A stretch of 64,000 nt of DNA from Candidatus Enterousia sp. (GTDB lineage: Bacteria; Pseudomonadota; Alphaproteobacteria; Rs-D84): assembly GCA_045646605.1 (NCBI GenBank), contig JAZRLA010000002.1, forward strand, positions 15,940-79,939, written 5' to 3'. The translations under genes were made by a program, and so were the position numbers. Within the stretch, counting starts at the first letter, position 1. Each line of letters begins with the position of its first letter. The notes under the pieces are model-generated. The model was given only the letters and a program-made list of their open reading frames with translations, did not search any database and had not been told where the DNA came from. Positions 589 to 59,950 of this stretch are shown here, piece after piece.

Positions 589-1068
589 ATGAAACGCGAA
601 GAAAAGTCAAACTTGATTTCTGCGTTGCAATCGTCCTTGGGCGAAGCGAACGGCGTTTTCGTCGTTGAAAATCACGGCCTTAGTGTAAAAGAAATGGAAG
701 TGTTGCGCAATGAATTGCGTCCACTTGTTTCCGTTTTCAAGGTTGTGAAAAATCGCCTTATGAAGTTGGCGTTAAAAGACACCGATTTCGAACCTGTATC
801 AGACCTTATGAAACGTCCGACCGCCGTTGCTGTTGCAACCGACGCGTTGGCCGTGACCAAGGTTTTGGTAAAATTTGTCGAAGAACATCCAAACCTTACC
901 ATCGTTGGGGGTAAAATGGATGCCGGCATTTTGGGTATGGACGATATTGTGCAATTATCCAAGCTTCCTTCTCTGCTCGAAGTTCGTGGCACAATTGCGC
1001 GTATCTTGGTGGAACCGGGGTCGCGTCTTGCGCGTGTTTCGGCGGAGTATGGAAAAAAGAATCAGTAA
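589..1068 (+). CDS. rplJ: 50S ribosomal protein L10
   Basis: L10-like sequence. Start chosen at ATG 589 (MKREEK…) after an AAGG RBS; the ORF extends to an upstream TTG at 544. Confidence 0.85.
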   Translation: MKREEKSNLISALQSSLGEANGVFVVENHGLSVKEMEVLRNELRPLVSVFKVVKNRLMKLALKDTDFEPVSDLMKRPTAVAVATDALAVTKVLVKFVEEHPNLTIVGGKMDAGILGMDDIVQLSKLPSLLEVRGTIARILVEPGSRLARVSAEYGKKNQ

Positions 1069-1110
1069 TTATTGGAATAACTTTCCAGTAAGAATCGAAG
1101 GAGCAAAAAA

Positions 1111-1479
1111 ATGGCAGACATTCAAAAATTAGTTGAAGAATTGTCAAAATTGACCGTTTTGGAAGCCGTAGAGTTGTCCAAAGCGTTGGAAGAAACATGG
1201 GGCGTTAGTGCCGCCGCCGCGGTTGCAGTTGCCGCAGGTCCGGCCGCAGGTCCAGCCGCCGAAGAAAAGTCCGAATTTGATGTTGTGTTGACGGATATTG
1301 GCGCAAACAAATTGGCGGTCATCAAGGCTGTGAAAGAAATCACAGGTCTTGGATTGACAGAAGCCAAGGCGTTGGTTGAATCTGCACCAAAGACGGTGAA
1401 AGAAGCTGTTGCCAAAGACGAAGCCGAAAAGATGAAGGCATCGATTGAGGCCGCAGGCGCCAAAGTTGAATTGAAATAA
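1111..1479 (+). CDS. rplL: 50S ribosomal protein L7/L12
   Basis: N-terminal dimerisation helix, Ala/Pro hinge ([10 protein letters not shown]) and C-terminal domain (…LKEAKDLVE-like, …KAVKE…GLGL…EAK). Confidence 0.92.
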
Positions 1480-1489
1480 TTCAATTCAT

Positions 1490-1512
1490 ACGAACCGAAA
1501 GGTTCAAAAAAA
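1490..1512 (+). terminator. Hairpin (GAACCGAAAGGTTC) between rplL and rpoB; possible partial attenuator
   Basis: Perfect 5-bp stem with GAAA loop, followed by an A-run rather than a U-run. Partial termination at this position is well known in other bacteria. Confidence 0.3.
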
Positions 1513-1619
1513 TAGGGTCCACGCCCGCGCGGATGAACGTTTGTCTGTGCGGGCGATGGGCAAAAAAGGTATATGCAATAGTTTCGTTTGCAAAACGCAT
1601 AAAAAAAGGATTGATACCC

Positions 1620-4600
1620 ATGGCAGTTATCCAAAAATTAAGAAAATCTTTTGGTAAAAGTTTTTTGCAAACTCCGCTTCCTGATTTAATAGAAATTCAA
1701 TACAATTCCTACAAGGAATTCTTGCAGGGCGATGTTGCACCCCAAAATCGTAAAAACAAGGGGTTGCAAAGTGTATTTACTTCTATGTTCCCAATCAAGG
1801 ATTATGCGGGGGCCGCCGAATTGGAATTTGTTGAATACAATTTGGAAAAACCGGCGTATAACGTCAAAGAATGCCTTGCGCGGAAAATGACGTATTCAAG
1901 CAAGTTAAAACTTAAATTAAAACTGATTTTGTGGGATGTCGCCGAAGATGGCAAAAAGTCATTGCGCGATATCAAAGAACAAGAAATCTTTATGGGCGAA
2001 GTGCCACTTATGACCGAACGGGGCAGTTTTATTGCATCGGGCGTAGAGCGCGTCATTGTTTCGCAAATGCATCGTGCCCAAGGTGTTGTTTTCGCAACCA
2101 CCAAAGAGGCCAAAATTGCCGGAAATCCTATTACATATACCGCGCGTATAATTCCGGAACACGGTTCTTGGATTGATTTCGAAGAATCCAAGGGGGTTAT
2201 ATATGTTCGTATCGACCGTCGTCGTAAAATTCCGGCAACGGTTTTATTACGTTGCTTACCGTGTGCCGAAGACGAAAAGAAATGGGTGGCGGAACCGCGC
2301 AAACCGACAATTCGCGGAATGTCTGATACTGAAATTTTATCGGTGTTCTACAAACGTATCGCGCTTAATAACAACGGTAAATTGTGGGTTGGTGACACAT
2401 CCGTGTTCGAAGGTTTGGATAAATATCGTTTAAATTACGATTTGATAAACCCCAAGGATAAAAAAGAATTGGCGGCCAAGGGTGATCGTTTGAACGCAAA
2501 GCGCTTAGGCAAGATTATGACCGCATCAAAACAATTCGGTATTTTGCCGGATGCGTTGGTGGGTGAATATTTGTTTGACCCGATTATGTCCGCGGGCGAA
2601 GTGATTTACCCGTCGGGTACCGAAATCACCGAAGAGGTTTTGGCCGATATCGAAAAACTTGGTATCAAAGATATTTCTTTGATTTCGATTGATAACACAA
2701 CGATAACCGCACACATGCGTAACACATTAGTTGCGGATAAAACGACAAATCGTGAAGATGCGTTAATCGAAATTTATAATATCATCAGACCGGGTGAACG
2801 TCCAACATTAGAGGCGGCAATTAACTTGTTCATGCGTCAAGGATTCGAAGCGGCATATTATGATCTTTCGCCAGTTGGTCGATTCAAAATGAACAAACGT
2901 TTGAAAATTGATTCTGGGAAAAAGCCCGAAGACGAACGTTTGCTGACCAAAAACGATTTTCTTGCGGTGTTAAAAACTTTGACGAACATCATCGACCACA
3001 AAGACACGATTGATGATATTGATAACCTTTCAAATCGTCGTGTTCGTACTGTTGGTGAATTGTTGGAACAAAATTTCCGTACCGGTATGGTTCGTATTGA
3101 ACGTCTTGTGCGCGAAAGTTTGTCTTCGCCGAATATTGCAACAATGCAACCCCAAGATGTTGTCAATGTCAATCCGTTGATGTCATTGGTTGCGGAATTC
3201 CTTGGGACAAGTCAATTGTCACAGTTTATGGATGCATACAATCCTCTTTCGGAATTGGAACACAAACGTCGTATATCTGCGTTGGGGCCTGGGGGACTTA
3301 ATCGCGAACGTGCTGGTATTGATGTACGCGACGTTCATCCAACACACTATGGACGTCTTTGCCCAATTAACACACCCGAAGGTGCAAACATTGGCTTGAT
3401 TAACCACCTTGCGTCTTATGCGCGTGTGAATCCATACGGATTTATTGAAACACCGTATTATGTTGTAGAAAACAGTAAGATTACAGACAAGATGGTCTAT
3501 CTTACCGCGGACGAAGAACTGGGACACAAAATTGCCCAAGGTAATACCCCAACAAATGACAAGGGTGTTTTGACCGAAGAAATGGTTACCGCGCGTGTTG
3601 ACGGTGAATTTACACGTGTACCACGTGGCGAAATCGATTTAATCGACGTTGAACCGCGCCAGGTGGTGTCCATTTCGACCGGACTTATTCCATTTGTTGA
3701 AAACGACGACGCGAACCGTGCATTGATGGGTTCAAACATGCAGCGTCAGGCCGTGCCACTCATGCGGGTGCAAACACCACTTGTTGGAACGGGGATTGAG
3801 CGTGAGGTTGCACGCGATTCTCGTACGGGCAAGGTCGCAAAGCACAGTGGTATCGTTGAATCTGCGGACGCAAATCGTATTGTTGTAAAATGTATGAACA
3901 GCCGCAATGTTGTGACGGGTGTGGACATTTACAATTTGGAAAAATACGAACGTTCAAACAATGATACGATTTTACATCAAAAGCCATTGGTTCATGCGGG
4001 TGACCGTATATCCGCGGGCGATATCATTGCGGACGGTTCGTCAATGAACTATGGTGAATTGGCGTTGGGTCGCAATGTCTTGGTTGCGTTCGTGCCATGG
4101 CGCGGATATAACTATGAAGATTCCATTGTGATTTCCGAACGTATTTCGCGTGATGATGTTTTCACATCGGTCAAAATTGTGGAAAAAGAAATCAAGGTTC
4201 GCGATACACAATTGGGGCCTGAAAGCTTAACGCGCGACATTCCGAACGTTAGTGAAGAAGCGTTAAAGAATTTGGACGAATCCGGTATTATCTATATCGG
4301 TGCACGTGTGAAACAGGGTGATATTTTGGTTGGCCATGTATCGCCGAAATCTGAAACATTGCTTACCCCCGAAGAAGCGTTGTTGCGTAACATCTTTGGT
4401 GAAAAGGCATTGAATGTAAAGGATACATCACTGCGTGTTGGTCCGAACGAAGAAGGAACGGTTATCGGTGTGAACGTCCTGACCAGACATGGGGTCAAGA
4501 AAGATGAACGTACCCAAATGATTGAATTGGAAAAAATCGCCAAGATAAATAAAGATCGTGACGAAGAAATCCAAATCATGGAAAAAGGTTTCGCCGACCA

Positions 4601-5756
4601 AATCTTCCAAATTGCCGAAGGTCACACTATCGAAGCCGGTACGGGTAGTTTGAAACCGTTCATCGGTAAAAAATTAAACCAGGAAGTGTTCGAAGGTATA
4701 AGACCGGCCGATTTCAAAAAGTTGGTCATATCTAACAAGGAAGCCCAGGCGAAAATCGAAGAAATTCGTGATGTGCACATCTTGACTTTGAAACAGTTGA
4801 ATGAAAATGCCGATCGCGAAATCGAAAAGGCGACCGAGAGCAATTCGCTGAATGCCGGTGTTTTGAAAGAAGTCAAGGTTTACATCGCACATAAAATGAA
4901 ATTGCAACCGGGTGACAAAATGGCGGGGCGTCACGGAAACAAGGGTATCGTTTCACGCGTTGTTCCAATCGAAGATATGCCACATATGGAAGATGGAACA
5001 CCGGTCGATATTGTTCTGAATCCGCTTGGCGTGCCAAGTCGTATGAACTTTGGCCAGATTTTGGAAACCCACCTTGGTATGGCGGCGCGCACGCTTGGTG
5101 AACAGATTGGGGCTGTTTTGGACGAAGTTAAACAAAAACGTGCGGTGACCGACGACCTGCGCGCGATAATGGGCAAGATTTATGGCAAAGACATGGCGGA
5201 AAAATTGGCCAAGATGACCGATACGGATGTTCGTGCCAATGCCGCGTTGTTGCGTGATGGTGTGCCGATGGCAACACCGACATTTGACGGTGCGAATGCC
5301 GAAGATATTCGTCGCATGTTAAAATTGGCAAAATTGCCTGAAACAGGTCAGTTCACATTGTATGACGGTGTAACCGGTGAAAAGTTTGCGCGTCCGGTGA
5401 CCGTTGGTGTGATGTATATGTTGAAACTGCATCATTTTGTGGACGAAAAGATTCACGCACGTTCAACCGCAAGTTATTCACTGGTAACGCAACAACCATT
5501 GTCCGGTAAGGCACACATGGGTGGCCAGCGTTTGGGTGAAATGGAGGTCTGGGCACTGGAGGCACATGGTGCCGCGCACTTGCTGCGTGAAATGCTAACG
5601 GTGAAGTCGGACGATATTGTTGGCCGTAACAAGATGTATGAATCCATCATTTCTGGCAGTGACGATATTCAAACCGGCACCCCAGAGGCGTTTAACGTGT
5701 TCGTTCGCGAATTGCGTGGATTAGGCCTGGCAATGACACCAAAAAAAATTGACTAA
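1620..5756 (+). CDS. rpoB: DNA-directed RNA polymerase subunit beta
   Basis: 1378 aa with unmistakable RpoB motifs throughout. Start at ATG 1620 (MAVIQKLRKSFGK…); the ORF-track extension from 1533 is probably not translated. Confidence 0.95.
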   Translation: MAVIQKLRKSFGKSFLQTPLPDLIEIQYNSYKEFLQGDVAPQNRKNKGLQSVFTSMFPIKDYAGAAELEFVEYNLEKPAYNVKECLARKMTYSSKLKLKLKLILWDVAEDGKKSLRDIKEQEIFMGEVPLMTERGSFIASGVERVIVSQMHRAQGVVFATTKEAKIAGNPITYTARIIPEHGSWIDFEESKGVIYVRIDRRRKIPATVLLRCLPCAEDEKKWVAEPRKPTIRGMSDTEILSVFYKRIALNNNGKLWVGDTSVFEGLDKYRLNYDLINPKDKKELAAKGDRLNAKRLGKIMTASKQFGILPDALVGEYLFDPIMSAGEVIYPSGTEITEEVLADIEKLGIKDISLISIDNTTITAHMRNTLVADKTTNREDALIEIYNIIRPGERPTLEAAINLFMRQGFEAAYYDLSPVGRFKMNKRLKIDSGKKPEDERLLTKNDFLAVLKTLTNIIDHKDTIDDIDNLSNRRVRTVGELLEQNFRTGMVRIERLVRESLSSPNIATMQPQDVVNVNPLMSLVAEFLGTSQLSQFMDAYNPLSELEHKRRISALGPGGLNRERAGIDVRDVHPTHYGRLCPINTPEGANIGLINHLASYARVNPYGFIETPYYVVENSKITDKMVYLTADEELGHKIAQGNTPTNDKGVLTEEMVTARVDGEFTRVPRGEIDLIDVEPRQVVSISTGLIPFVENDDANRALMGSNMQRQAVPLMRVQTPLVGTGIEREVARDSRTGKVAKHSGIVESADANRIVVKCMNSRNVVTGVDIYNLEKYERSNNDTILHQKPLVHAGDRISAGDIIADGSSMNYGELALGRNVLVAFVPWRGYNYEDSIVISERISRDDVFTSVKIVEKEIKVRDTQLGPESLTRDIPNVSEEALKNLDESGIIYIGARVKQGDILVGHVSPKSETLLTPEEALLRNIFGEKALNVKDTSLRVGPNEEGTVIGVNVLTRHGVKKDERTQMIELEKIAKINKDRDEEIQIMEKGFADQIFQIAEGHTIEAGTGSLKPFIGKKLNQEVFEGIRPADFKKLVISNKEAQAKIEEIRDVHILTLKQLNENADREIEKATESNSLNAGVLKEVKVYIAHKMKLQPGDKMAGRHGNKGIVSRVVPIEDMPHMEDGTPVDIVLNPLGVPSRMNFGQILETHLGMAARTLGEQIGAVLDEVKQKRAVTDDLRAIMGKIYGKDMAEKLAKMTDTDVRANAALLRDGVPMATPTFDGANAEDIRRMLKLAKLPETGQFTLYDGVTGEKFARPVTVGVMYMLKLHHFVDEKIHARSTASYSLVTQQPLSGKAHMGGQRLGEMEVWALEAHGAAHLLREMLTVKSDDIVGRNKMYESIISGSDDIQTGTPEAFNVFVRELRGLGLAMTPKKID

Positions 5757-14420: not shown

Positions 14421-17400
14421 ATGAAACGACTTGCTATATTTATTGGTGGCCTGTTTGTGTTGCCCGCATTTGCTGAGGTTGCGCCCGTTTTCGTTACGGA
14501 TGAAGGCGCACTTGAATATGCGGATTTGATGTACGATGAAAATGGGTTTTTGATAATTCCTGATACAGAAATTGTTGAAGAAACGGACGAAGTGGACGAA
14601 CAAAAATCGCAAACGCCCGTAAAAATTTCGCGTGTGCCAACCGGTGCAACGCCGACCGCGAATCGTTCAACGGCATCGCGTGCGGTGCCTGCGTCGGGCC
14701 GAACGAATAATACATCGGGTCGTGGTTCAAATGCGGGCAATTCATCGCGTGTTGTTTCGGCACGTACGACAACCGCCACGCCGCGTGCAAATGCATCGCG
14801 CACGGTTGCATCACGTGGAACGGTTGCGTCGCCACGTACGGGAACGGCCGCGACGACATCAACGCGTACGACATCGAATACCGCGGCAACAAACGCGGCG
14901 GCGGCACGTGCAACGGGTGGTTCGGCCCGGTCGACCGCAACAACTGGTGCAAATGTTGCACGAACCGGAACAGTTGCGCGGACGGCAACGACGACGCGTG
15001 CGGGAACTGCGCGTGCGGCGACGGCAAAATCATCGACTGTTTCGCGTGCGGCAACAACGGACACATCGCGTCCATCGGTGCGTGGAAATATTGATGTTGG
15101 TGCGGGGGTAAAGGCCGGTGCAACAATCACGGCATCGAACGGAACTGTCACATTAGTGGATTCGAATAGAAGTCTTTATAACGCATCTGCGGTTCGTCGC
15201 GCGCCAACTGTTCGCATGTCTGCGTTAAAGGATACGACTGAATCAACAATAACCATGTCGATGGAGGATATGGATGATTTGGCGGAAATGACCGATTACT
15301 GCAAGGCACAATACGCATCATGTATGGATAATTATTGTAATGTCTTGGACGATAACCAGGGCCGGTGCAGTTGCAGTGCGAATTTAAAGAATTATGCCAA
15401 GGCCGAACAGGCGTTAAAAACCGCAACCGAAGAATTACAGGACGTTGCGCAAAAAATCCAATACATCGGTCTTACCACGCGTGAGGTTGAAACCCTGTTC
15501 ACCCAGACCGAGGCTGAATTGGCAATGCAATCCAAAACGGATACCAGCCAACTTCAGGCGAGTCTTGATAAAATCAAGGACATGATAATCGATGTTAAAA
15601 CCGGCAACACGACCAGCAGTGGCAACACCGACCTTTTTGGTCTGAATTTTGATTTGTCGGGCCTTTTGGAATTTTCGTTCGACAGTACTGGTTTTGACCT
15701 TGGGTCGCTTTTTGGTATGTCCAACACGAACAGTGTTAGCAACCAACGCGGCGAAGAACTGTTCAAAACCGCAACGGCGCGTTGCAAAACATCGGTGTTA
15801 AAGGCATGCACGGCGCGTGGTGTTGATGCGTCACTTGTCACAAACGCATACGATTTGGAAATTGATCGTGAATGCATCGCGTACGAGCGCAGTTTGAATG
15901 ATTCCAACGACCAAATGATTGCGACGGTTCGTAATGCAAAGAACGTTTTGCAAAAGGCGCGCCTTATGGTTGCGCAACAGAAAAACGCCTATGACCTGCG
16001 CGGATGTATCAACGCCCTGGACGAATGTATGCAGGATGAATTTGTCTGCGGTTCGGAATATGAAAATTGCCTTGACCCGACGGGCCGTTATATCGTGAAC
16101 GGTGAAATCGTGGTGGGCAGTCAACCCGGCCACGCCATTGACCCAGATTTACCGCAAAATGTCGCAAGTGTGATGACCAGTGACGTTTGCCGCGTGAACC
16201 TGTATCGGACATGGGACGTTGAACCCGGTGTATGCACACCGCACACCGTGGATGATGCATACAGCACATATGTTCAATATCCAACCGCGGACCAAGGCAA
16301 CGCCTGGGGCAGTGGTAATGAAAACGACAACCTTGTATATTATATTGAACAAACGGTAAAAACCGGCGCCGCGCACACGGCAAGTGAAAATATGTCGAAA
16401 TACTTGCAAAACAAAATCGGCTATATCGACAAAAAGGACGGCCGCGCGCACGGTATGTGCATATCGGTCCTTAACAAATGCCAAGATTATAGTTACGATG
16501 GCAAGGGCACATCCGCCAGTTACAAGGAAGACAACGACGTCATCAAACAATACCTTGGGCGCGTTTTGGTCCAGATCAAGGCGAAACAGGATGAAATCCT
16601 TGCAAACTATGCCGAAACATGTGTAACGGACGTCACATCGTGCCTGTCACAGAACGGGTACCCGACCGAGGATCCAACGGAATGGGGCGACGGCGACCCA
16701 AACTCACTTGAATACACGCAAAACATTGTAAAACAAAACATTGCGGTAAACGCCTGCCGGGCGCAGGTTGTAACCTGTATGTCCGTGAACGGCTATTCAA
16801 TCAGCACCCCAACCCCAACGGAAATGAATTGCTGGGTCCAAGGTTTGCTGTATAACTACACAACCGAAGATTGCATGTTTGAAACCAACACCACACATTC
16901 GTGCAGTTCTAGTACGCCTGGGTGGTGTTATAATAAGACCGCCTGTGAGGATGTCGGTGCCAACTGGTGCGGCAGTTCATGTCAACAACAGGAATGTTCC
17001 TGTTCGACACAAAACCCGGGCTCTTGCACCGAAACGGAATGCAAGGCAAAGACCGGCTTGTTCTGGTGCACGAATAATGGCGGTTCTTGTATGACCAGTA
17101 ATTCGCAATGCAGATATACTGTGAACATTGCGTGTGGAAGTGGTTCGACCGCTGCAAGTAGCAACCCCACCAGTAGCAACGTAATGCACGGCAATTCTGT
17201 GCAACTAAATAATGCATGGTGTAATGCAAGCAGCGATTACACATTTATTGGGTGGACTTGTACTGGTGGTTCGGTTGATAGCAGTGGAAAGTATTACCCA
17301 ACACACACTGGAACCACATGTACAGCAAACTTTAGATATGTATCCCCCGACACACCAAAATATTCCGTAACCCTTAACTGTGGCAATTCTTGTACCTATA

Positions 17401-18578
17401 ATTCGCGTGGATATAGTGGTACTTCGTTACCTCAGGGTACATCGCTTACTGTTCCAACTTGCAACAATGCTGTAAACGAGACGGTAGAATGGTCCTGTCA
17501 ATCGGATTCTACAATCACTGCTGGTCAGATTAATGGTGGAAATAGCCTATCTGTAACCGGGAAAGTCAACTGTACCGCACAATGTTCAACCCCTGGTACT
17601 GGCGATGAAATTAGTGTATGCATCGATTGTGGAATTAACACTTTTGTGAGCGACAAGATTAACACTATATCTGTTGGCTCCAAAGCATCCGCCTCGTTGC
17701 CATATACAGAAACTAGTAGTTCGGTTACTTTGTCATCATTTACATCTGGTGATGGGATTGAATTTGATAAAGGAATATGCAAATGCAGTGATGGTAGCAG
17801 CCCAACGGGATGGTGGGCAAACGACAGTACCCAAGGCATATCGGTGGGTAGTGACGGTAAGATTACAATGTCAAATATAACCGCAGACACAACCTTTACC
17901 CCAATATGCTCCACCGGCACCACGGACGGCACCACAATTGTGCAGATTTCATGCCCCGCCTCTTCTTGGGCAACACTTAACACTAATTTCTTCAGCAATT
18001 ATCCTGGAGATATAATAGCAGGCAATGTATATAAACAAGAAAACGTGACATCTTCAACGTTCGCGTTGGATAAGGATATGTGCGCTTGTAAGTCAGGGGA
18101 TACTATTAAAAATTGGATAAATAGTAACGGTGGTTTAGTCGGGGGTGTTAGCGGTGATTATGGCACGACAAATGCTATCTTAAAAACAGGCCAACTCAAT
18201 ACATTTATGCCGTATTGTCCGTCGGATTGGGTAACGTTGAATTTGAACTATAACAACGGTTCAACATCGCAAGGGCATCTTTACATTGATAGAAATCGTA
18301 CATGTCCAAATTTCTATACAAGTAATAGCATAACCCAATTACAATATTGCCCGTCTATAGTTCCCGACAGCAAAATCACCGTTCCAACCAAAGATAATTG
18401 CACGTTTGGTGGGTTCAAGGATAGCAGTAACAATACGTGGATAAATACCGAAGGTAAAATACAATTATCTGTTCTAAACTATGCTATTCCATCGACGGGC
18501 AACAGTATAACATTAACCGCACAGTGGGATTGCGGGTCCAGGCCGGTTTATATCCCCGTTGACGTTGAAGGTGACTAA
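14421..18578 (+). CDS. Giant secreted Cys-rich surface protein (1385 aa)
   Basis: Signal peptide MKRLAIFIGGLFVLPAFA. A ~180-aa Arg/Thr/Ala/Ser low-complexity tract, then an acidic segment, then a long Cys/Asn/Thr/Gly-rich region. AAGGAAGG RBS. Confidence 0.8.
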   Translation: MKRLAIFIGGLFVLPAFAEVAPVFVTDEGALEYADLMYDENGFLIIPDTEIVEETDEVDEQKSQTPVKISRVPTGATPTANRSTASRAVPASGRTNNTSGRGSNAGNSSRVVSARTTTATPRANASRTVASRGTVASPRTGTAATTSTRTTSNTAATNAAAARATGGSARSTATTGANVARTGTVARTATTTRAGTARAATAKSSTVSRAATTDTSRPSVRGNIDVGAGVKAGATITASNGTVTLVDSNRSLYNASAVRRAPTVRMSALKDTTESTITMSMEDMDDLAEMTDYCKAQYASCMDNYCNVLDDNQGRCSCSANLKNYAKAEQALKTATEELQDVAQKIQYIGLTTREVETLFTQTEAELAMQSKTDTSQLQASLDKIKDMIIDVKTGNTTSSGNTDLFGLNFDLSGLLEFSFDSTGFDLGSLFGMSNTNSVSNQRGEELFKTATARCKTSVLKACTARGVDASLVTNAYDLEIDRECIAYERSLNDSNDQMIATVRNAKNVLQKARLMVAQQKNAYDLRGCINALDECMQDEFVCGSEYENCLDPTGRYIVNGEIVVGSQPGHAIDPDLPQNVASVMTSDVCRVNLYRTWDVEPGVCTPHTVDDAYSTYVQYPTADQGNAWGSGNENDNLVYYIEQTVKTGAAHTASENMSKYLQNKIGYIDKKDGRAHGMCISVLNKCQDYSYDGKGTSASYKEDNDVIKQYLGRVLVQIKAKQDEILANYAETCVTDVTSCLSQNGYPTEDPTEWGDGDPNSLEYTQNIVKQNIAVNACRAQVVTCMSVNGYSISTPTPTEMNCWVQGLLYNYTTEDCMFETNTTHSCSSSTPGWCYNKTACEDVGANWCGSSCQQQECSCSTQNPGSCTETECKAKTGLFWCTNNGGSCMTSNSQCRYTVNIACGSGSTAASSNPTSSNVMHGNSVQLNNAWCNASSDYTFIGWTCTGGSVDSSGKYYPTHTGTTCTANFRYVSPDTPKYSVTLNCGNSCTYNSRGYSGTSLPQGTSLTVPTCNNAVNETVEWSCQSDSTITAGQINGGNSLSVTGKVNCTAQCSTPGTGDEISVCIDCGINTFVSDKINTISVGSKASASLPYTETSSSVTLSSFTSGDGIEFDKGICKCSDGSSPTGWWANDSTQGISVGSDGKITMSNITADTTFTPICSTGTTDGTTIVQISCPASSWATLNTNFFSNYPGDIIAGNVYKQENVTSSTFALDKDMCACKSGDTIKNWINSNGGLVGGVSGDYGTTNAILKTGQLNTFMPYCPSDWVTLNLNYNNGSTSQGHLYIDRNRTCPNFYTSNSITQLQYCPSIVPDSKITVPTKDNCTFGGFKDSSNNTWINTEGKIQLSVLNYAIPSTGNSITLTAQWDCGSRPVYIPVDVEGD

Positions 18579-18600: not shown

Positions 18601-21600
18601 ATGAACATGAAAAAGACTTTTATTTATTCAATCTGTGGATGTTTTGTAACCGGTGTGGCGACCGCGACCACATATTGGCTAAACATTATTCCAAATACAT
18701 GTACGGGGCACACAATATGCCTTACCCAGCCCACGGATGGTTCATGTTGTTCCGCAAACGATACCATTGAAAAATTTCCTGTTGCCTCTGGATCCAAAGG
18801 CGGCACCATTTCCCTGGGGTCCCGCAATATTGCAATATTTGATGCGACCGGTACGCCAACAACGTTTACCAACGAAAATATTCGTAATTCATTGATAAAC
18901 GCCACATCAAATGGAAGTCACCTTAGTGTTACAAAAATTCCCGCGGACACAACATTGGTATCCGTCACGGTTAATATGCAGGGCGGTTCATTACCCCTTG
19001 GGTTTACGGGTAACACGATGGCGATGGAACCGGGCGATGTAATCCTGTCTGCGGGCGTTACGCGTGCCGATGGTGCCAATTTGGCCGGATTTTATAAATC
19101 GGGTCAATCGCCGTCCACCGCAACATCAATTATAACCGTTGATAGCACACCAAGCCAAACATATATCGCAAAGTGGGAATGTGGCGAAGGTTTGGAAATG
19201 AATTCAAAGGGAACATGTATAAGTTCGAATACCGTTTATATGAAATCGGATGGTACGGTAATGGACCCCAATGAAATCGATATTAAATCCGGCGGTTCCA
19301 ATGGTTGCACTTTGTTGACCAAGGGCAAGGTTCATTTGTACGATTATAACCCAACTGCCCCCGATGATTTAAAGAATAATATGTATTATTATATGTATCG
19401 TGATGGTCCCAATGGTTCCTATGATAATAATATAATATATCGGCCATATTCGGACAGTGATCATAATCCATATATGGGAACTATTGTTACGTTAAACAAT
19501 ATATCCCAGGTTCAAAACTACAATTATTTACATACCGGAAGTCCGAACAATGGTGTAACACTGTATTGTCGTAGTAATGGATGCTGGTGGTCCGAACAGG
19601 GTGCCGAGTTACCCATGGTGGTATATCACACCAGTTCACAAAATGATTGTACGTGGTGCGGGTCCGATTGTACAATGTATACATATCCAAATAACGGCCA
19701 AACAATCTACTATTGGCAATGCCCTTGCATAAAGGCCTATGACGTCCCGGGCGAGGGCGAATGCGTCCCCGCATATCTTGGATGTACATATTTACCCCAG
19801 GTAACAGAAGATGGAACCACAGAAATGGTATGTGTACCACAAGGACAATATTCGGCCGCACATACCGAAGATTTAGTATGGGGATTACGTCAGCCAAAGG
19901 CAATCGGGTGGACTTTCCGCGGCTATTATCTTTCAAATACTGATGCAGACCTGTATACAACCGAAAATACAAATGTGGGCGCACCCGTAAATGGTTTCGG
20001 CACAGGAAACCCGAACAATCGGGAAAAAGTAATAAACATTACATCTCCAATCGCTGTATGTGGTACAAGTGGGCAAACGGCATATGAAATCACTCTTTAT
20101 GGTGCGTGGGCCAAAAACTGTAATCCTAGCGATCATGCGACATGTAATATGTCAATTAATGGCGTGGGCGCAAGTCCGTCATCTTATGGAACCGGCGACG
20201 TGTATTACAGCGCGTCATGCCAAAACGGGTACAATATAGAAAGCGGATCCGGAACGTATAATCCGGTGTGCAGTACGGATGTATCGGGTTCTGTGGACCT
20301 TAATTACAAATTTATAAATCAATACGGAAATTATATCAAGAAAAACAACAGCATGTACACTGTTGAGAACAGCTGTTCGTACGGGCAAGGATACACACTT
20401 TTAAGTGCGACCAGTTTCACCAACGCCCTTGGCACCGGGTATAGTTTGCGTTATTTAAAGATTGGTACTGGCAGTAATGGTTCATATTTTACCCAAAATT
20501 ATGGCCTTGGCTGTAGTACAAACGTGTTTGGCGCCGATGTAAATTCGGTCGATGTTACCGGGTACGTTTGCGACGAATGTGTGCCAGAGAACGGAACCTG
20601 TGTTGATGTCGATTACAGCCCATCTATACAATATCCCACCAGTGGTTCCGCACATCAAACCGCCACGTTGTGGGGTGCAAACACTAATAAAGGCTATACG
20701 GCATGCAAGAAATTAAGTTGTGCAGAGGGATACACCCTGCGGCAAAATGAAGCCACCGGTCACATGTATTGTGCACAAGAATGTGAACCCGGTAAAACGT
20801 TTCTTGATGGTGAATGTCGTACACCTTATGAGGCTTGCATATATAATTGTCAGCAAAACCAAGACCCGTCTAAGTGCGGCAGCAATTTAACAGATTTTTC
20901 AAGCTATTGCAGCACCGAAACATTTGTGTGTCCACCTTTAAACGCTCCAACGGGTCTTAGTATTACAAATGTGGCCAAGACAAACAGCCCCAAAGAATGC
21001 AAATATACGGTTGATTGCGCCAATGGTATCGGTACAGTATACGAAGGGGGACAGATGATCCATACCCAAGATAATGAGCTACATATATGGACAAGCAATA
21101 CTACGTCTGATTATATCCATTATAATGATGATGGCTCGGTTACGGTTACCTGTACTGATACAGACTGCAAACAAGAAAAGCTGAGTAATTTAAAGTGTCT
21201 GATTTGTCCGGCTTATAACGGGTCAGATACTACTGTAACTGTTCATAACCCGACGCGGAGCGATAAAAATCGCACCTGTTCATATAACATTAGCTGTAAA
21301 GCTACAGTGGTCCCAAGAATATTATTGAAAAAACGCGCAAGAAATGATAGCTGTTATGTGTGGAATGAGACTGATGAACCCAACTACTGTGCAATCGACA
21401 ATATTGACGCTGATTCTACGGATACTTTTACACCGACGGATACGGTTACATGCACGGCCAACCAATGTACGGCCGGTTATATGAGCACTCCTTACCACTT
21501 CTTGTCCACCGAATTTGCGAAATATAAATGTATACATACCAGCGCCTTCAGTTGCCCAACAATTAGTGGAAACAGCGGGGTAGCCGTCACAAAACGGCTA

Positions 21601-21900
21601 GGAACAGGCGAACAATGCACATACACATTGTCGTGCAATAATACTTCTCAAGTTCCGTATAGTGGTGGAGCACGCCCCAGTAGCAACTCTCCCACTGCAG
21701 TGACAATTTCTTGCGATGGGGTGGATGGATACAGCAATGCACCTTGCGTGGCGAGTTATTTAACCAGTAAGATACAAGCGTATATCTGTGGAGATACTCC
21801 GGGCTCTGGTGGTTCTGGGGATTCTGGTGATTCCGGCGGTACGGGTAGTGATGAAGGCGATATAGGTTCTGGTACCTCCGGTGGCACCCAAAGCAATTAA
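18601..21900 (+). CDS. Giant secreted Cys-rich surface protein (1099 aa), tandem to the previous one
   Basis: N-terminal hydrophobic signal. Cys/Asn/Thr/Gly/Tyr-rich throughout. C-terminal Gly/Ser/Asp tail (GSGGSGDSGDSGGTGSDEGDIGSGTSGG). 22 bp after the upstream gene. Confidence 0.8.
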   Translation: MNMKKTFIYSICGCFVTGVATATTYWLNIIPNTCTGHTICLTQPTDGSCCSANDTIEKFPVASGSKGGTISLGSRNIAIFDATGTPTTFTNENIRNSLINATSNGSHLSVTKIPADTTLVSVTVNMQGGSLPLGFTGNTMAMEPGDVILSAGVTRADGANLAGFYKSGQSPSTATSIITVDSTPSQTYIAKWECGEGLEMNSKGTCISSNTVYMKSDGTVMDPNEIDIKSGGSNGCTLLTKGKVHLYDYNPTAPDDLKNNMYYYMYRDGPNGSYDNNIIYRPYSDSDHNPYMGTIVTLNNISQVQNYNYLHTGSPNNGVTLYCRSNGCWWSEQGAELPMVVYHTSSQNDCTWCGSDCTMYTYPNNGQTIYYWQCPCIKAYDVPGEGECVPAYLGCTYLPQVTEDGTTEMVCVPQGQYSAAHTEDLVWGLRQPKAIGWTFRGYYLSNTDADLYTTENTNVGAPVNGFGTGNPNNREKVINITSPIAVCGTSGQTAYEITLYGAWAKNCNPSDHATCNMSINGVGASPSSYGTGDVYYSASCQNGYNIESGSGTYNPVCSTDVSGSVDLNYKFINQYGNYIKKNNSMYTVENSCSYGQGYTLLSATSFTNALGTGYSLRYLKIGTGSNGSYFTQNYGLGCSTNVFGADVNSVDVTGYVCDECVPENGTCVDVDYSPSIQYPTSGSAHQTATLWGANTNKGYTACKKLSCAEGYTLRQNEATGHMYCAQECEPGKTFLDGECRTPYEACIYNCQQNQDPSKCGSNLTDFSSYCSTETFVCPPLNAPTGLSITNVAKTNSPKECKYTVDCANGIGTVYEGGQMIHTQDNELHIWTSNTTSDYIHYNDDGSVTVTCTDTDCKQEKLSNLKCLICPAYNGSDTTVTVHNPTRSDKNRTCSYNISCKATVVPRILLKKRARNDSCYVWNETDEPNYCAIDNIDADSTDTFTPTDTVTCTANQCTAGYMSTPYHFLSTEFAKYKCIHTSAFSCPTISGNSGVAVTKRLGTGEQCTYTLSCNNTSQVPYSGGARPSSNSPTAVTISCDGVDGYSNAPCVASYLTSKIQAYICGDTPGSGGSGDSGDSGGTGSDEGDIGSGTSGGTQSN

Positions 21901-44909: not shown

Positions 44910-45175
44910 TAGATGCTTTTGTGTGTTTTGCGACTATATTTTGTATTTTTGTAAAAATACGAATCGATTTCGAATCGTTTTTGTTTATTTTCTTGACACA
45001 AAACATGCTTTGGTGTTCAAATTGTGTTATGATATTGTTCCTGAACACCGCAGAAAACCCGCATTTTTAAATGTCCAGTAAAAAAATAAAAAAAATTTCA
45101 TTTTATTGGTTGTATTAAAATCGAAAAAACTATATATTGATGCTGAAACAACGTAAACGACACAAGATATTGTGT
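44910..45175 (+). promoter_or_regulatory. nrdD upstream region with NrdR-box-like palindromes
   Basis: ACACAAGATATTGTGT at 45160-45175 matches the NrdR box consensus (acaCwAtATaTwGtgt). A TATATAT-centred partial box lies about 31 bp upstream, and TCTATATATAGA at ~44912. Confidence 0.4.
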
Positions 45176-45200: not shown

Positions 45201-47243
45201 ATGTCTGGGACCAAAAAAGAGGTTAAAATGCAGATTGCGCCGACATTTATATGCAATGTCATGAGTGTGAAAAAGCGCTCTGGCGAAACGGTTGCGTTTG
45301 AATCAAAAAAAATTTACAACGCTATTAAAAAGGCGGCAATGGCCACAAATGAAATTTCTGATGAAACGGTTGTCCAAATCACAAATGAAGTTTTGAAAGA
45401 TTTGGACAATAATTTTATGGCGCGCACCCCATCGGTCGAAGAAATCCAAGATACGGTGATTCGCAAACTGATGGATGCACACGCGTACAAAACCGCAGAG
45501 GCATATATTATATATCGCCAAAAACATTCTGAAATTCGCAACGCTAATGTTGATGCGATTGATATAATTGAAAGTTATGTCGGCGGTTCGAATTGGCGTA
45601 TCAAGGAAAATGCAAATATTGGTTATTCCATTGGCGGACTTATCTTGCGGACCAGTGAACGCGTAACGGCCGAATATTGGTTGAATATGTTTCCGGCGGA
45701 AATTGCCGATGCACATCGCAGTGCGGCAATTCATATCCACGACCTTGGGTGGTTGACGGGATATTGCGCTGGTTGGTCGCTTCGCGAATTATTGTACGAA
45801 GGTTTCAACGGTGTTCCGGGTTATCTGCAATGTGAACCGGCCAAACATATGGCCACCGCAATTTCACATATGGTAAATTTCCTTGGCACGTTGCAAAACG
45901 AATTTGCCGGGGCCCAGGCATTTTCCTCGGTTGATACATATCTTGCACCGTATGTCCGTGTGGACAATATGTCCTATGCCGATGTAAAAAACGCGATGCA
46001 GACATTGGTATTCAATTGCGCCGTGCCGTGCCGTTGGGGAACACAAACGCCGTTTATCAACTTTACATTTGATTGGACATGCCCCGAAGACCTGAAACCG
46101 CAACGTCCGTTTATTGGTAAAAAGCAAGTTGACTTTACATACGGCGATTTGCAAAACGAAATGGACATGATAAACCGCGCATTTATAGAGGTCATGACCG
46201 AAGGCGATGCCCAGGGGCGTCCGTTTACTTTCCCGATTCCGACATACAATATCACGAACGATTTTCCGTGGGATCATCCAAACGTTAAACCTCTGTTTGA
46301 TTTGGCGGCAAAATACGGAATTCCGAATTTTCAGAATTTCTTGAATTCTGATTTGAACCCAACGGACGTTCGTTCTATGTGCTGTCGCTTGCGCCTTGAT
46401 GTGCGTGAATTGCTGAAACGTGGTGGGGGCCTGTTCGGTTCCGCGGAAAAGACCGGATCAATCGGCGTCGTCACAATGAACCTTGCACGGCTTGGGTATA
46501 TGCACAAGGGCGACCGTGATGGATTGTTCCGCGACCTTGAACGGCTAATGAATATGGGACGTGAAGTTTTGGAAATCAAACGCCGTGTCATCACAAAGCA
46601 CATGGAAAATGGGCTCTATCCATTTACGCGTCGTTACCTTGGCAATTGGAATCATCACTTTTCCACAATTGGTGTGAACGGTGCGAACGAAATGGTTTTA
46701 AACTTTACGGATGGCAAAGAAAACATCGCAACCCCGTATGGTAAAAAATTGGTTTTGGACTTGATGGACTTTATGCGCGAAAAACTCGTAAAGTTCCAAG
46801 AAGAAACCGGAAACCTTTATAATTTGGAGGCTACGCCGGCCGAAGGTTGTTCGTATCGTTTCGCAAAGACCGATGTCAAAAATTTCCCGGATATCATTAC
46901 CGCCGGCACGCGTGAGGCACCGTATTACACAAACTCCACACAATTACCAGTGAACTTTACCGATGACCCGTTTGTCGCATTGGAACACCAGGAAGAATTG
47001 CAACGCAAATATACCGGTGGCACAATGTTACACCTTTATATGGGCGAACCGGTATCCAGTGGTGAAGCGGCACAGAAAATCGTGCGCACGATATTCGAAA
47101 ACTACAAGATTCCGTACATGACACTTACCCCGACATTTTCAATATGTCCAAAACACGGGTATCTGCCTGGCCGGCATGAATTTTGCCCAAAGTGCGACGC
47201 CGAACTTGGCATAACGCCAGACGACGTGTCGAACAAGGCATAA
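45201..47243 (+). CDS. nrdD: Anaerobic ribonucleoside-triphosphate reductase catalytic subunit, lacking the C-terminal glycyl-radical segment
   Basis: N-terminal ATP-cone (…KIYNAIKKAAMA…). NrdD core. C-terminal Cys-x2-His…Cys-x2-Cys zinc site (SICPKH…FCPKCD). The ORF stops 9 codons after the zinc site without an RxxGY motif. Confidence 0.85.
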   Translation: MSGTKKEVKMQIAPTFICNVMSVKKRSGETVAFESKKIYNAIKKAAMATNEISDETVVQITNEVLKDLDNNFMARTPSVEEIQDTVIRKLMDAHAYKTAEAYIIYRQKHSEIRNANVDAIDIIESYVGGSNWRIKENANIGYSIGGLILRTSERVTAEYWLNMFPAEIADAHRSAAIHIHDLGWLTGYCAGWSLRELLYEGFNGVPGYLQCEPAKHMATAISHMVNFLGTLQNEFAGAQAFSSVDTYLAPYVRVDNMSYADVKNAMQTLVFNCAVPCRWGTQTPFINFTFDWTCPEDLKPQRPFIGKKQVDFTYGDLQNEMDMINRAFIEVMTEGDAQGRPFTFPIPTYNITNDFPWDHPNVKPLFDLAAKYGIPNFQNFLNSDLNPTDVRSMCCRLRLDVRELLKRGGGLFGSAEKTGSIGVVTMNLARLGYMHKGDRDGLFRDLERLMNMGREVLEIKRRVITKHMENGLYPFTRRYLGNWNHHFSTIGVNGANEMVLNFTDGKENIATPYGKKLVLDLMDFMREKLVKFQEETGNLYNLEATPAEGCSYRFAKTDVKNFPDIITAGTREAPYYTNSTQLPVNFTDDPFVALEHQEELQRKYTGGTMLHLYMGEPVSSGEAAQKIVRTIFENYKIPYMTLTPTFSICPKHGYLPGRHEFCPKCDAELGITPDDVSNKA

Positions 47244-47288
47244 AAACAAGAACTAACAAAAGCAATACAAAAAAGAAAGGAGAGAAAC

Positions 47289-47474
47289 ATGATTGCTAAC
47301 CAACAACAAAGAACACCTTGCGAAGTATTTTCACGCAGCATGGGATTTATTCGCCCGACAAAAAATTTCAACATCGGGAAATATTCTGAATTCTGCGAAC
47401 GCAAGACGTTCACCGAATGCAATTGTTTGACGACCGGCGCACGGCACGTCGAATTGATGAAGAAAGCCGCGTAA
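47289..47474 (+). CDS. Stand-alone NrdD-type glycyl-radical domain protein (61 aa)
   Basis: …SRSMGFIRPTKNFNIGKYSEFCERKTF… matches the NrdD C-terminal glycyl-radical region (RxxGY…NxGKxxExxER). Own RBS (AAAGGAGAG) 45 nt after the nrdD stop. Ends 2 nt before nrdG. Confidence 0.6.
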   Translation: MIANQQQRTPCEVFSRSMGFIRPTKNFNIGKYSEFCERKTFTECNCLTTGARHVELMKKAA

Positions 47475-47476
47475 AG

Positions 47477-48178
47477 ATGAATACTGTTCAGATTGGCGGG
47501 TTGGTATCGTTCACAACGATTGACTTCCCGGGCAAATTGGCGGCGGTTTTGTTCTTGGTCGGTTGCCCATTGCGTTGTGCGTATTGTTCCAACCCGCATC
47601 TGATTGATGTCGCCCCCGGTGAATACGATGCGGATAAAGTTTTGGATTGGTTGCGGTCCCGCGTCGGAAAGCTGGAGGGCGTCGTTTTTTCCGGTGGCGA
47701 AGCATTGATGCAGGGCGACGCCACAATCGACTATATGCGGCGCGTGCGCGATTTGGGGTTTGCAATCGGCCTGCACACAAATGGGTTTTATCCCGAAAGA
47801 TTGGCCGCGGCCGCGGATTTAATTGATTGGATTGGTATTGATTACAAGGCAACCAAAACAAATTACGAAAAACTTACCGGCATAAATATCGCATACGACC
47901 GGTTGCTGCAAAGTTTGGACGTGTGGTCGAAAACCGGCAAACCGGCGGAGGTTCGCGTCACTTGTGACCCGCGATATGTCACGCCGGACGATTTGTTAGA
48001 AATTGCGCGTGATGTGTCGGCGCGCGGATTCAAAAACTTTGCGGTGCAAAAATATATTCCACACTTTGAAGATGACGAACATAAGACAACGCCCGCAATG
48101 CGTGGCGCATTTTTTACCGACGACAAATTACGTAATGAAATAAATTCCATGTTCGAAACCGTCATTTGGCGGGAATAG
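47477..48178 (+). CDS. nrdG: Anaerobic ribonucleotide reductase activating protein (radical SAM)
   Basis: GCPLRCAYCSNP CxxxCxxC motif; 233 aa from the ATG at 47477. Confidence 0.8.
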   Translation: MNTVQIGGLVSFTTIDFPGKLAAVLFLVGCPLRCAYCSNPHLIDVAPGEYDADKVLDWLRSRVGKLEGVVFSGGEALMQGDATIDYMRRVRDLGFAIGLHTNGFYPERLAAAADLIDWIGIDYKATKTNYEKLTGINIAYDRLLQSLDVWSKTGKPAEVRVTCDPRYVTPDDLLEIARDVSARGFKNFAVQKYIPHFEDDEHKTTPAMRGAFFTDDKLRNEINSMFETVIWRE

Positions 48179-58107: not shown

Positions 58108-58240
58108 GGTAAATACGTCATCCCGCGGTATCGGGCCCCGCAAAATTTGAAAAATTTTGTGGGTGATGACAGGCGGGATCTTGTGGTTTCAACTATAATA
58201 ACAAGATACCGCCTTTCGGCGGTATGACGTTTTACTCTTT
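58108..58240. repeat. Mosaic GC-rich hairpin repeat, instance B3
   Basis: CGTCATCCCGCGGTATCGGGCC…GGGTGATGACAGGCGGGATC…GATACCGCCTTTCGGCGGTATGACG shares modules with B2. Between convergent glyQS and 58232..59917. Confidence 0.5.
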
Positions 58241-59917
58241 TACCGTGGGCAACGATACAACATCGTTATAGAATGTCAGGAATTTTTTGCCTGTGCCGCA
58301 ATATATCTTTTCAAGTGAATCATTATATTCGCGTGTGGCTTCGACAAAGCGGGCCTCGATATCGGCCTGGGCACCTTGGTATCCGGAAAATCCGCCAAGC
58401 GCACCACCGACGCCTGCGCCTTTTAGTGTTGAACCCAAACGTGCCTTGTTCGAAAAATCAACCACGCCGCCATCATCAGCATCCATCGTCAACGGGTTAA
58501 AATCTTCAATTGTGTACGGGTTTTTATCGGCATCCACTAACTTGCAATCACCAGTTGGGTTACCGTATCCGTCGCGCTGGCACATTCTTACGCCCGTTTT
58601 ATGCGCAGCCTTCCATTGTGTCCAATCGGCAAGTTTTTGTCCAAATGCCCCCGTATCTTGGAAATCAACAATAACCGCCGATATTGGTGCGCCCGCCCGT
58701 TTTTCAACATACGCATCATAGCAATACGCGTCGTCGAATCCCGGATTCGGTTTTATATCATTATTTTCATATTTATATTCGGTTGCTTTATCGGCAAGAA
58801 AACGGGCAAAATCGCCGTTCTTATTAAATTCTTCGGGACGATAGGTTTTACCGTCTTTGTTACCTTTTATATGTTTTACAACCAAGCTGTTATCTATTGT
58901 GCACGGCTTATCCGTCTTTGTAGTGTCGCAAACAATCACATTACTATCCTTTGGACAGTAATAATAGTTTTTGCTTGGGTCTTTTAATTGTTCTGTTTTT
59001 GTAATGTTTCCCCAAAGGCATGTTGTTTCACGCCCCCCGTCATTACACTTTTGTACACGCAATACCGCATCACCCGTTGCCATCATATTTCCAACAACAC
59101 TGCCCGCCGCCGCGTTCACACCCGCGTGTAAAATCGTATCACCGGCGACTTTCCCGGAATATGTGCTTGCGGTCATCAATGCTGCACCAAGCAACGCGCC
59201 ACCAAGTGTGGTTTTCATTTTTTCCGAATTTGTTCCAAACAAACCGTCTTTGCCCGGTTCTTGTCGCCCGACCATATTTCCCGCAACACCCGCCGCAACC
59301 GTCGCCGCCGCGATTTTAAGCCCCGCTTTGTTCTTTTGTTCTTCGTTCAAAACGCGAATAACATCATCGTGTGTCGGTGCATTGTCCGCCGGGAAAGTCA
59401 CACGCATCGCGTCCGGCAAATATGACGAAGATGGAAAGTCCGATATATTGCAATTCACCGCATCACCCGCCGCCAATTTTCCACGTGCCACGGTTGTATA
59501 TTCATATGCACCGTTCGCGCCCAAGACGCGCATTTCAACGACCGCGACACATGTTGGCTTGCCACCGGCGCCTTGCCCCATTGTAGGCACATCCCAAACA
59601 AATTCGCCGTCGGGATAAATCATTGCACAGTTGTTCAGTGTATTGTAATCTGCGCCTGCATCTTTATCGCCACTTTTTATCTTGTCCGCAATATTTTTAT
59701 CGGCCACACGAACCGGTAAATCTACGTCAACCGGCGCATCTTGGACGGCGGCAACAGAATCATAGTATTGCTGTTCCAATGCGGTAACATTTTTATACGA
59801 ATTTGCATAGTTTCGTGAAATATTCCCAACGCGTATTCCACCAAACACATCACCTGCGGATAAAACCGCAACCCCGGCCAACAACGAACAAAACAATATA
59901 CAATAATTCTTTTTCAT
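58232..59917 (-). CDS. Secreted hypothetical protein (561 aa)
   Basis: Signal peptide MKKNYCILFCSLLAGVAVLSA. Gly/Ala-rich with scattered Cys. No known domain. Confidence 0.55.
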   Translation of the reverse strand: MKKNYCILFCSLLAGVAVLSAGDVFGGIRVGNISRNYANSYKNVTALEQQYYDSVAAVQDAPVDVDLPVRVADKNIADKIKSGDKDAGADYNTLNNCAMIYPDGEFVWDVPTMGQGAGGKPTCVAVVEMRVLGANGAYEYTTVARGKLAAGDAVNCNISDFPSSSYLPDAMRVTFPADNAPTHDDVIRVLNEEQKNKAGLKIAAATVAAGVAGNMVGRQEPGKDGLFGTNSEKMKTTLGGALLGAALMTASTYSGKVAGDTILHAGVNAAAGSVVGNMMATGDAVLRVQKCNDGGRETTCLWGNITKTEQLKDPSKNYYYCPKDSNVIVCDTTKTDKPCTIDNSLVVKHIKGNKDGKTYRPEEFNKNGDFARFLADKATEYKYENNDIKPNPGFDDAYCYDAYVEKRAGAPISAVIVDFQDTGAFGQKLADWTQWKAAHKTGVRMCQRDGYGNPTGDCKLVDADKNPYTIEDFNPLTMDADDGGVVDFSNKARLGSTLKGAGVGGALGGFSGYQGAQADIEARFVEATREYNDSLEKIYCGTGKKFLTFYNDVVSLPTVKE

Positions 59918-59950
59918 TTGGCCCCCCAATCAGACCACATGGTTAAATCC

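Follow-up and report, generated by a model that had tools for sequence, protein, structure and literature searches.

A split class III ribonucleotide reductase in Candidatus Enterousia, with the glycyl-radical domain encoded by a separate small gene between nrdD and nrdG

The 64,000-nt stretch of Candidatus Enterousia DNA analysed here (contig JAZRLA010000002.1, positions 15,940 to 79,939; hereafter the window) carries three tightly packed genes on the + strand, namely nrdD, for the large chain of a class III (anaerobic) ribonucleotide reductase (RNR), an open reading frame (ORF) of 61 codons, and nrdG, for the radical-SAM activating enzyme. The textbook class III RNR is a homodimer of one polypeptide that bears its own glycyl radical, and in canonical NrdD the glycyl-radical domain is formed by the C-terminal 35-60 residues of the same chain. 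In contrast to canonical NrdD, the radical segment in the window comes from a gene of its own, which has a separate translation start. Coordinates below are positions in the window, and the gene map was drawn from the ORF map and the raw sequence:

45160-45175, no strand assigned: palindrome ACACAAGATATTGTGT, located 26 nt upstream of where nrdD starts, read directly from the sequence
45201-47243, + strand: nrdD, large subunit, 680 residues with a TAA stop; ATP-cone at residues 21-111, class III RNR barrel at residues 136-666, then a C-terminal zinc ribbon
47145-47195, + strand: predicted zinc-ribbon motif C649-P-K-H652...C662-P-K-C665; no conserved element of the large subunit lies beyond it, only a 15-residue tail that varies
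47244-47288, + strand: intergenic spacer of 45 nt, A-rich, containing the Shine-Dalgarno sequence of the small ORF
47289-47474, + strand: small subunit, a stand-alone glycyl-radical domain of 61 residues with its own ribosome-binding site (RBS) and ATG and with Pfam and NCBIfam matches
47477-48178, + strand: nrdG, radical-SAM activating enzyme of 233 residues, its ATG lying 2 nt past the stop codon of the small ORF

The Shine-Dalgarno sequence AAAGGAGAG occupies positions 47276-47284, with its GGAG 6 nt ahead of the ATG of the small ORF, whose product has the sequence MIANQQQRTPCEVFSRSMGFIRPTKNFNIGKYSEFCERKTFTECNCLTTGARHVELMKKAA. The core of this protein runs R8-T-P-C11-E...S-R-S-M-G19-F...N-F-N-I-G-K-Y-S-E-F-C-E-R38 and is followed by a conserved tail that ends in -KKAA; the codon of the radical glycine, Gly19, lies at 47343-47345. 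The placement of the small ORF 45 nt downstream of nrdD, with its own RBS and an end 2 nt before nrdG, was thus as the initial annotation had described it from the sequence alone, but nrdD was found to end 15 residues past the last zinc-ribbon cysteine rather than the 9 codons given there. The gap of only 2 nt between the small ORF and nrdG makes translational coupling of the two likely.

Profile searches showed that the two ORFs complement one another as parts of a single NrdD. The large ORF matched the Pfam ATP-cone domain (E = 5e-23) and, over profile positions 1-528 of 562, the Pfam NRDD family (PF13597, E = 5.5e-171), and the small ORF matched positions 532-562 of the latter profile. Likewise, the NCBIfam model PRK08270 (NF006126) matched the large ORF at 1036 bits (cut-off 548) over positions 3-652 of 684 and the small ORF over positions 649-682; TIGR02487 also matched the large ORF (461 bits, cut-off 326). 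The proposal that the glycyl-radical segment had been detached from nrdD onto the 61-codon ORF is therefore borne out by profiles that the two ORFs tile between them. The RxxG[FY] radical motif is absent from the large ORF, as had been claimed, the matches of which stop at 528/562 (NRDD) and 652/684 (PRK08270). The nrdG product matched the NCBIfam equivalog model NrdG2 (TIGR02495, 176 bits, cut-off 131) as well as Pfam Radical_SAM.

A contiguous homologue, the 802-residue NrdD of uncultured phage MT835493, which is 50% identical, places the division more exactly. Residues 23-665 of the large ORF align to residues 7-655 of the phage protein and residues 10-45 of the small ORF to residues 658-693 (E = 4e-11), so that the two products abut within 2 residues on the contiguous chain; the CPKC of the phage enzyme is matched in the alignment by that of the large ORF, and the chain is cut immediately after the zinc ribbon. 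About 15 residues at the C-terminus of the large protein and 9 at the N-terminus of the small one are peculiar to the split. The large ORF has the catalytic alpha/beta barrel of the NRDD family and, predicted from its sequence, the C-terminal zinc ribbon that precedes the radical domain in class III enzymes (C649-x2-H652-x9-C662-x2-C665), and the cognate radical-SAM activase NrdG adjoins it; the radical glycine is not on the barrel polypeptide and is supplied only in trans, by the 61-residue protein. The best relatives of solved structure of the large ORF are all class III RNRs (8p23, 9d3x, 4coi and 4u3e from Thermotoga maritima, and 1h78 from phage T4). For the small ORF, NRDD was the only relevant Pfam match, no match to PF01228 (Gly_radical) was obtained at E <= 1, and neither Pfam nor NCBIfam holds a model dedicated to this protein. 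PDB sequence searches with the small ORF and with its profile gave no match, and a query made by concatenating the large and small products aligned only up to the zinc ribbon.

The same arrangement was found throughout the related genomes. A scan of one genome per species yielded 80 loci whose NrdD is 79-99% identical; the source is in every case an uncultured alphaproteobacterium of gut or rumen, and many of these are named Candidatus Enterousia. The 80 loci and the window together make up the 81 loci referred to below. The small ORF is present in 80/80 relatives within the same three genes, which answers the suggestion that orthologous loci be inspected for the split, and the adjacent NrdD lacks a radical domain in 81/81 loci. 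No close relative (>80% identity) with a contiguous nrdD was detected among the 80 loci, contiguous relatives being met only at about 50% identity, so there is no intact close counterpart against which a lesion in the window could be read. A search of proteins with the large subunit as query brought up near-identical relatives only.

The junction between the two genes varies, and the small protein itself is held under strong constraint. The frame of the small ORF relative to nrdD is 0 in 31 loci, +1 in 13 and +2 in 25 (69 loci in which the nrdD stop could be located automatically), the spacer measures 21-53 nt among relatives, and the nrdD stop codon is either TAA or TAG. In the window the small ORF happens to lie in frame with nrdD across a single TAA (47241-47291), and a readthrough product would have 757 residues; since the frame varies in relatives, this position looks like chance. 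A Shine-Dalgarno sequence that matches AGGAGG in at least 5 of 6 positions precedes the ATG in 76/81 loci, and the distance from the stop of the small ORF to the nrdG start is 1-9 nt in 80/81. The tail of the large subunit past the CxxC comprises 11 to 22 residues among relatives, and the residues closest to the junction are the least conserved. By the Nei-Gojobori method the ratio of nonsynonymous to synonymous substitutions (dN/dS) of the small ORF is about 0.08, with 0.07 in the radical core and 0.16 in the C-terminal tail. An alignment of 21 homologues has 33 invariant columns, among them R16, G19, N28, G30, K31, E34 and R38 of the NrdD radical motif, in agreement with the radical glycine and the N-x-GK-x2-E-x2-R pattern recognized initially. 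Genomes of Candidatus Enterousia (order Rs-D84) are smaller than 1 Mb and have neither a TCA (tricarboxylic acid) cycle nor a respiratory chain (PMC12306168); in so small a genome a useless or decaying gene is unlikely to persist.

The small subunit ends in -AA in 74/81 loci of the Enterousia clade and in -VA in the other 7 (last codon in the window, 47469-47471). Among 149 diverse representatives of the small protein, 11 end in AA, where 0.4 would be expected from composition, and 31 end in A. We take this end to resemble the ClpX recognition tails of the ssrA/MuA type, and the C-terminal -AA is a possible degron.

The small protein is not confined to the Enterousia clade. Its profile, run against 1.84 billion representative proteins (representatives at 50% identity), gave 2,594 matches at E <= 1e-3, a count that takes in an unquantified share of fragments because assembly artefacts are present in the catalogues. 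The best 150 of the 2,594 are all short (47-118 residues); 147 of the 149 readable sequences among them start with Met, and these matches have a variable N-terminal stretch, the radical Gly at median residue 27, and the motif ER(T/Q)xCE(V/I)W(T/S)RVMGY(H/Y)RPVxxFNxGKKxEFxER. Clustering at 90% identity gave more than 300 clusters of the small protein; the 120 clusters listed span 56-92 residues, 95 of them falling within 56-64, and where named they are mostly a 'hypothetical protein'. The contexts of the small protein that were inspected one by one all proved genuine. In four distant chromosomal or megaplasmid contexts the nrdD-small-nrdG layout was recovered:

L081: nrdD, small gene and nrdG of 583, 62 and 244 residues
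L085: nrdD, small gene and nrdG of 673, 63 and 237 residues
L087: large gene at 1010-3955 (981 residues), with a LAGLIDADG homing-endonuclease/intein-like insertion, and small ORF at 4001-4228 (75 residues); nrdR upstream
L088: the same locus as L087 without the insertion; large subunit of 672 residues

A tblastn search of plasmids and chromids with the small protein matched 161 records, from Ralstonia (132), Bradyrhizobium (7), Cupriavidus (5), Paracoccus (4), Allochromatium (2) and others; the Ralstonia and Bradyrhizobium records stand for a small-protein match only, and the three-gene layout was inspected in three other records. On the finished megaplasmid pHG1 of Cupriavidus necator H16, a 676-residue 'ribonucleoside triphosphate reductase' is followed by a 66-residue protein, which RefSeq labels nrdD (WP_011154154.1), and by an overlapping activase. 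Paracoccus ferrooxidans has the same layout with a 60-residue gene annotated as 'hypothetical protein', the small gene overlapping the activase gene there as in C. necator, and C. metallidurans CH34 also has the same three genes. The CH34 genome paper lists NrdDG as Rmet_5137 and Rmet_5139 (PMC2864759); the gene skipped in that listing, Rmet_5138, is presumably the small radical subunit, so the middle gene has been overlooked. In the same paper, NrdDG of C. eutrophus H16 is cited as essential for complete denitrification, with the B12-dependent NrdJ able to substitute (PMC2864759), and this need for NrdDG is indirect evidence that loci of the split type are functional. Split loci thus occur in organisms that need the nrdD-nrdG locus for anaerobic growth.

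A second split point, suggested by 'proteins' of 92-200 residues related to the database protein P0384, was considered and rejected. These are pieces of a fused actinobacterial NrdD, produced by frameshifts or contig edges; they show the fused sequence of this clade (…CERCAAARPNAEPVECEVWTRVMGY…), with only about 10 linker residues. In a long-read metagenome-assembled genome (MAG), an actinobacterial NrdD at L116 (2570-4399) was called as four fragments of 141, 68, 118 and 132 residues. Artefacts of this kind inflate the number of short NrdD C-terminal proteins and could mimic a second split point.

Copies of the small gene that stand apart from nrdD were encountered on phage contigs. A scan of IMG/VR with the small-protein alignment found 25 loci, of which only one, L091, has nrdD and nrdG, and that contig looks like Enterousia chromosome. 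The other 24 each carry a Met-started ORF of about 45-70 residues with the full radical motif RxxG[FY]...NxGKxxE, and in these 24 loci no NrdD or NrdG profile match was obtained among ORFs of at least 50 residues within ±10 kb (353 kb over all 25 loci, five contigs being covered completely). The orphan mini-proteins of the NrdD type, about 45-80 residues long, lie in the IMG/VR loci L092-L115 and L118-L138 and in L089. Genes neighbouring the phage copies encode tail-fibre proteins (Mtd_N, gp53-like), DNA polymerase A, HNH endonucleases and a recombinase. One such protein, P0243 (79 residues; 4001-4240 of its contig, L089), is encoded among the phage recombination genes Sak, YqaJ, HNH and methyltransferase, and neither NrdD nor an activase is encoded in the vicinity. 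A basic tail, …KMPCGKKKGGKK, terminates many of the phage versions, and the phage small proteins match positions 117-156 of the 179-position profile phrog_4132 ('unknown function') at E of about 1e-6, so that phrog_4132 may be a phage-side family of stand-alone radical modules. From the orphan phage copies it would seem that the radical module is exchangeable and open to supply in trans. The contiguous NrdD of phage MT835493.1 used in the alignments above belongs to the same clade and is encoded at positions 3009-5438 of an unannotated record (L139). Past the radical domain it has an additional glutaredoxin/thioredoxin-like C-terminal segment (…TKTCPNCKMAKMMLDKAGIKY…), and its nrdG lies upstream of nrdD, not downstream.

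Elsewhere in the window, a weaker and degenerate second copy of the palindrome ACACAAGATATTGTGT lies at about 45127-45142, 33 nt upstream of the first. The palindrome shows an apparent resemblance to the consensus of the NrdR box (operator), and it may be a repressor site. Two very large adjacent ORFs, at 14421-18578 (1385 residues) and 18601-21900 (1099 residues), had no Pfam match at E <= 1e-5, and the ORF at 58232-59929 (565 residues) was also without a match.

Compared with the canonical single-chain class III RNRs of Escherichia coli, phage T4, T. maritima and Prevotella copri, the locus encodes the same domains in the same order, with an adjacent activase. Besides the separate radical polypeptide, the differences are a zinc ribbon of C-x2-H...C-x2-C in place of the canonical four cysteines and the extra conserved tail of the small protein that ends in -AA. 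Small stand-alone glycyl-radical domains are known from pyruvate formate-lyase (PFL), in which a separate protein, YfiD/GrcA, can replace a cleaved radical domain; phage T4 encodes Y06I, a stand-alone glycyl-radical protein for PFL, so phage-borne versions exist in both systems. By analogy with GrcA, the small protein would presumably be activated by the activase of its parent enzyme and work non-covalently with a core that has no functional radical domain. Unlike GrcA/YfiD, however, it belongs to an NRDD-type family without the homology to the PFL C-terminus that defines PF01228 and IPR011140, its gene lies within the operon, between those for the core and the activase, and the parent next to it is without a resident radical domain throughout the 81 loci, whereas a spare part belongs to a full-length parent. 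An RNR catalytic chain divided between two co-transcribed polypeptides, the C-terminal module being on the second, is also seen in NrdJa/NrdJb of Pseudomonas aeruginosa, but that enzyme is of class II (B12-dependent) with different chemistry, and the module there is not the radical site but an IscU-like and Zn-finger domain for reductant relay. The enzyme in the window is class III by every profile, so NrdJa/NrdJb is an analogy only. Benzylsuccinate synthase (alpha-beta-gamma) and 4-hydroxyphenylacetate decarboxylase are glycyl radical enzymes that likewise have small accessory polypeptides. Both keep the radical glycine on their large catalytic subunit, in contrast to the arrangement described here, where it is on the small polypeptide.

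The split, seen here in gene anatomy, in the complementarity of the NrdD-profile matches, in conservation, purifying selection and independent translation signals, and in a wide phylogenetic spread, is real, ancient, under strong selection and widespread. We consider it highly probable that the locus encodes an obligate two-polypeptide class III RNR with its radical domain acting in trans, as the initial annotation had proposed in suggesting a two-polypeptide NrdD. The occurrence of the split in all relatives in three frames, each with its own RBS and under purifying selection, and in finished genomes of cultured Proteobacteria, argues for this reading. Because the large subunit is without a radical Gly of its own, the small protein would be an obligate subunit and not an optional spare.

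The initial annotation had raised as its alternative a module of the GrcA/YfiD kind, that is, a protein normally dispensable that rescues only oxygen-damaged enzyme. Such a role would suit a glycyl-radical domain that is small, stands alone and lies beside its activase, and it would also suit the orphan copies on phage contigs without nrdD and nrdG, which parallel Y06I of phage T4. Such a strict spare part is nevertheless improbable, given that the large subunit lacks a radical domain in 81/81 loci and leaves nothing resident to rescue, that the family matched by the small protein is NRDD and not the PFL-type Gly_radical, and that its gene shows strict co-location and coupling with both nrdD and nrdG. 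The part of that proposal concerning supply in trans has fared better, as the orphan phage copies suggest just this. Another possibility, which we rate as very unlikely, is that the stop codon is bypassed by readthrough, frameshifting or ribosome hopping to give one fused NrdD. The window, where only a single TAA stands between the two in-frame ORFs, would permit it, but in the relatives all three frames occur (0, +1 and +2 in 31, 13 and 25 loci) behind spacers variable in length (21-53 nt) and sequence, so no single or conserved recoding signal could serve all of them, and the small ORFs each have an ATG and a Shine-Dalgarno sequence of their own.

That a normal nrdD was broken by recent pseudogenisation or an assembly error is scarcely credible. 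Databases do contain NrdD genes fragmented by error-prone assembly, L116 among them; however, the same architecture recurs in 80 MAGs obtained independently, in different studies and from different hosts, as well as in cultured bacteria with finished genomes, the dN/dS of the small ORF is about 0.08, and the split brings 24 extra residues and an RBS rather than a point lesion. The earlier view that a sequencing artefact was unlikely is upheld by the shared split, its three relative frames and the low dN/dS. Taken together, the frame, spacer, RBS and selection data lead us to set aside readthrough, frameshifting, hopping, sequencing error and recent pseudogenisation as excluded. Post-translational joining of the two chains by split-intein trans-splicing has an equally negligible probability. 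Inteins and homing endonucleases do occur in NrdD genes, and the relative L087 has its LAGLIDADG insertion, but no intein domains were detected by Pfam, and the residues unaccounted for at the junction, 15 on one side and 9 on the other, are too few and too poorly conserved, which excludes it.

Some points weigh against a two-polypeptide enzyme. Biochemical or expression evidence for the small protein was not found in any organism, and assembly artefacts account for some of the short NrdD C-terminal 'proteins' catalogued from metagenomes. The search for another RNR covered the 10 largest ORFs of the window, among which none was found. Modelled alone, the small protein gave a low-confidence structure (predicted local distance difference test, pLDDT, of 56) with three short helices predicted; such a model is compatible with a protein that folds on binding and proves nothing.

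In single-chain NrdD (T4, T. maritima, P. copri) the radical domain lies past the zinc ribbon, its Gly loop is inserted opposite the finger-loop Cys, and the domain must swing out to reach the activase. The cut in the Enterousia enzyme falls in the linker between zinc ribbon and radical domain and leaves the residues of the catalytic motif all on the small chain; from this we infer activation of Gly19 in trans and docking of the small protein, which would also be open to exchange. In the obligate two-polypeptide enzyme, the 680-residue NrdD core would carry the allosteric ATP-cone, a barrel of ten strands that holds the thiyl-radical finger loop (MCCRL), and the zinc ribbon. The genes for nrdD, the small protein and nrdG would be co-transcribed, with translation of the small subunit coupled to that of NrdG; the tight coupling of the small gene to nrdG suggests that radical carrier and activase are made together. 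NrdG would abstract the pro-S hydrogen from Gly19 of the small protein, and the activated small subunit would then dock non-covalently, its Gly loop entering the barrel opposite the finger-loop Cys, and do the job of the covalent radical domain. A possible consequence is that the oxygen-labile part is cheap and can be replaced without remaking the 680-residue core.

A further reading, which we put forward tentatively and hold to be possible rather than probable, is that the protein of about 60 residues is a diffusible, consumable and exchangeable 'radical cartridge' that is replaced after cleavage by oxygen and of which phages carry their own copies. Here NrdG would charge the small protein off the enzyme, and the charged protein would plug into the NrdD core; once cleaved by oxygen at the glycine it would be discarded and replaced while the 680-residue core was kept, and the conserved C-terminal -AA may aid disposal as a ClpXP-type degron. 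Phages could bring cartridges without nrdD or nrdG and so sustain synthesis of deoxyribonucleoside triphosphates by the host during infection. The orphan phage copies are the main support for this reading.

No description of a split NrdD was found in the searchable full-text literature, which excludes most subscription-journal papers and so leaves a prior mention possible; the initial statement that no such module had been described for class III RNR agrees with the literature searched. According to a 2026 review, small stand-alone radical proteins occur among glycyl radical enzymes only in the formate lyases (PMC13450708), NrdJa/NrdJb has been described as a unique split RNR (PMC4520616), and split domains have been said to 'may represent strategies… distinct to class II RNRs' (PMC9669993). 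The split class III RNR is apparently undescribed, widespread and present in model organisms, its small gene bearing the name nrdD in some RefSeq genomes, and by the evidence gathered here a large clade of class III RNRs appears to place the radical on a distinct chain about 60 residues long.

For enzymes of this type, annotation and heterologous expression would fail without the small gene. They offer a tractable natural system for the presentation of the radical domain to the activase and its docking into the barrel, and the split type is present in the genetically tractable hosts C. necator H16 and C. metallidurans CH34. The arrangement also raises the idea that the oxygen-labile part of the enzyme is deliberately replaceable and that phages supply it. 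If the small protein does act as an exchangeable cartridge, it would be the first example, beyond the formate lyases, of a radical module that is exchangeable or a spare part, and class III RNR would gain a true radical-bearing small subunit.

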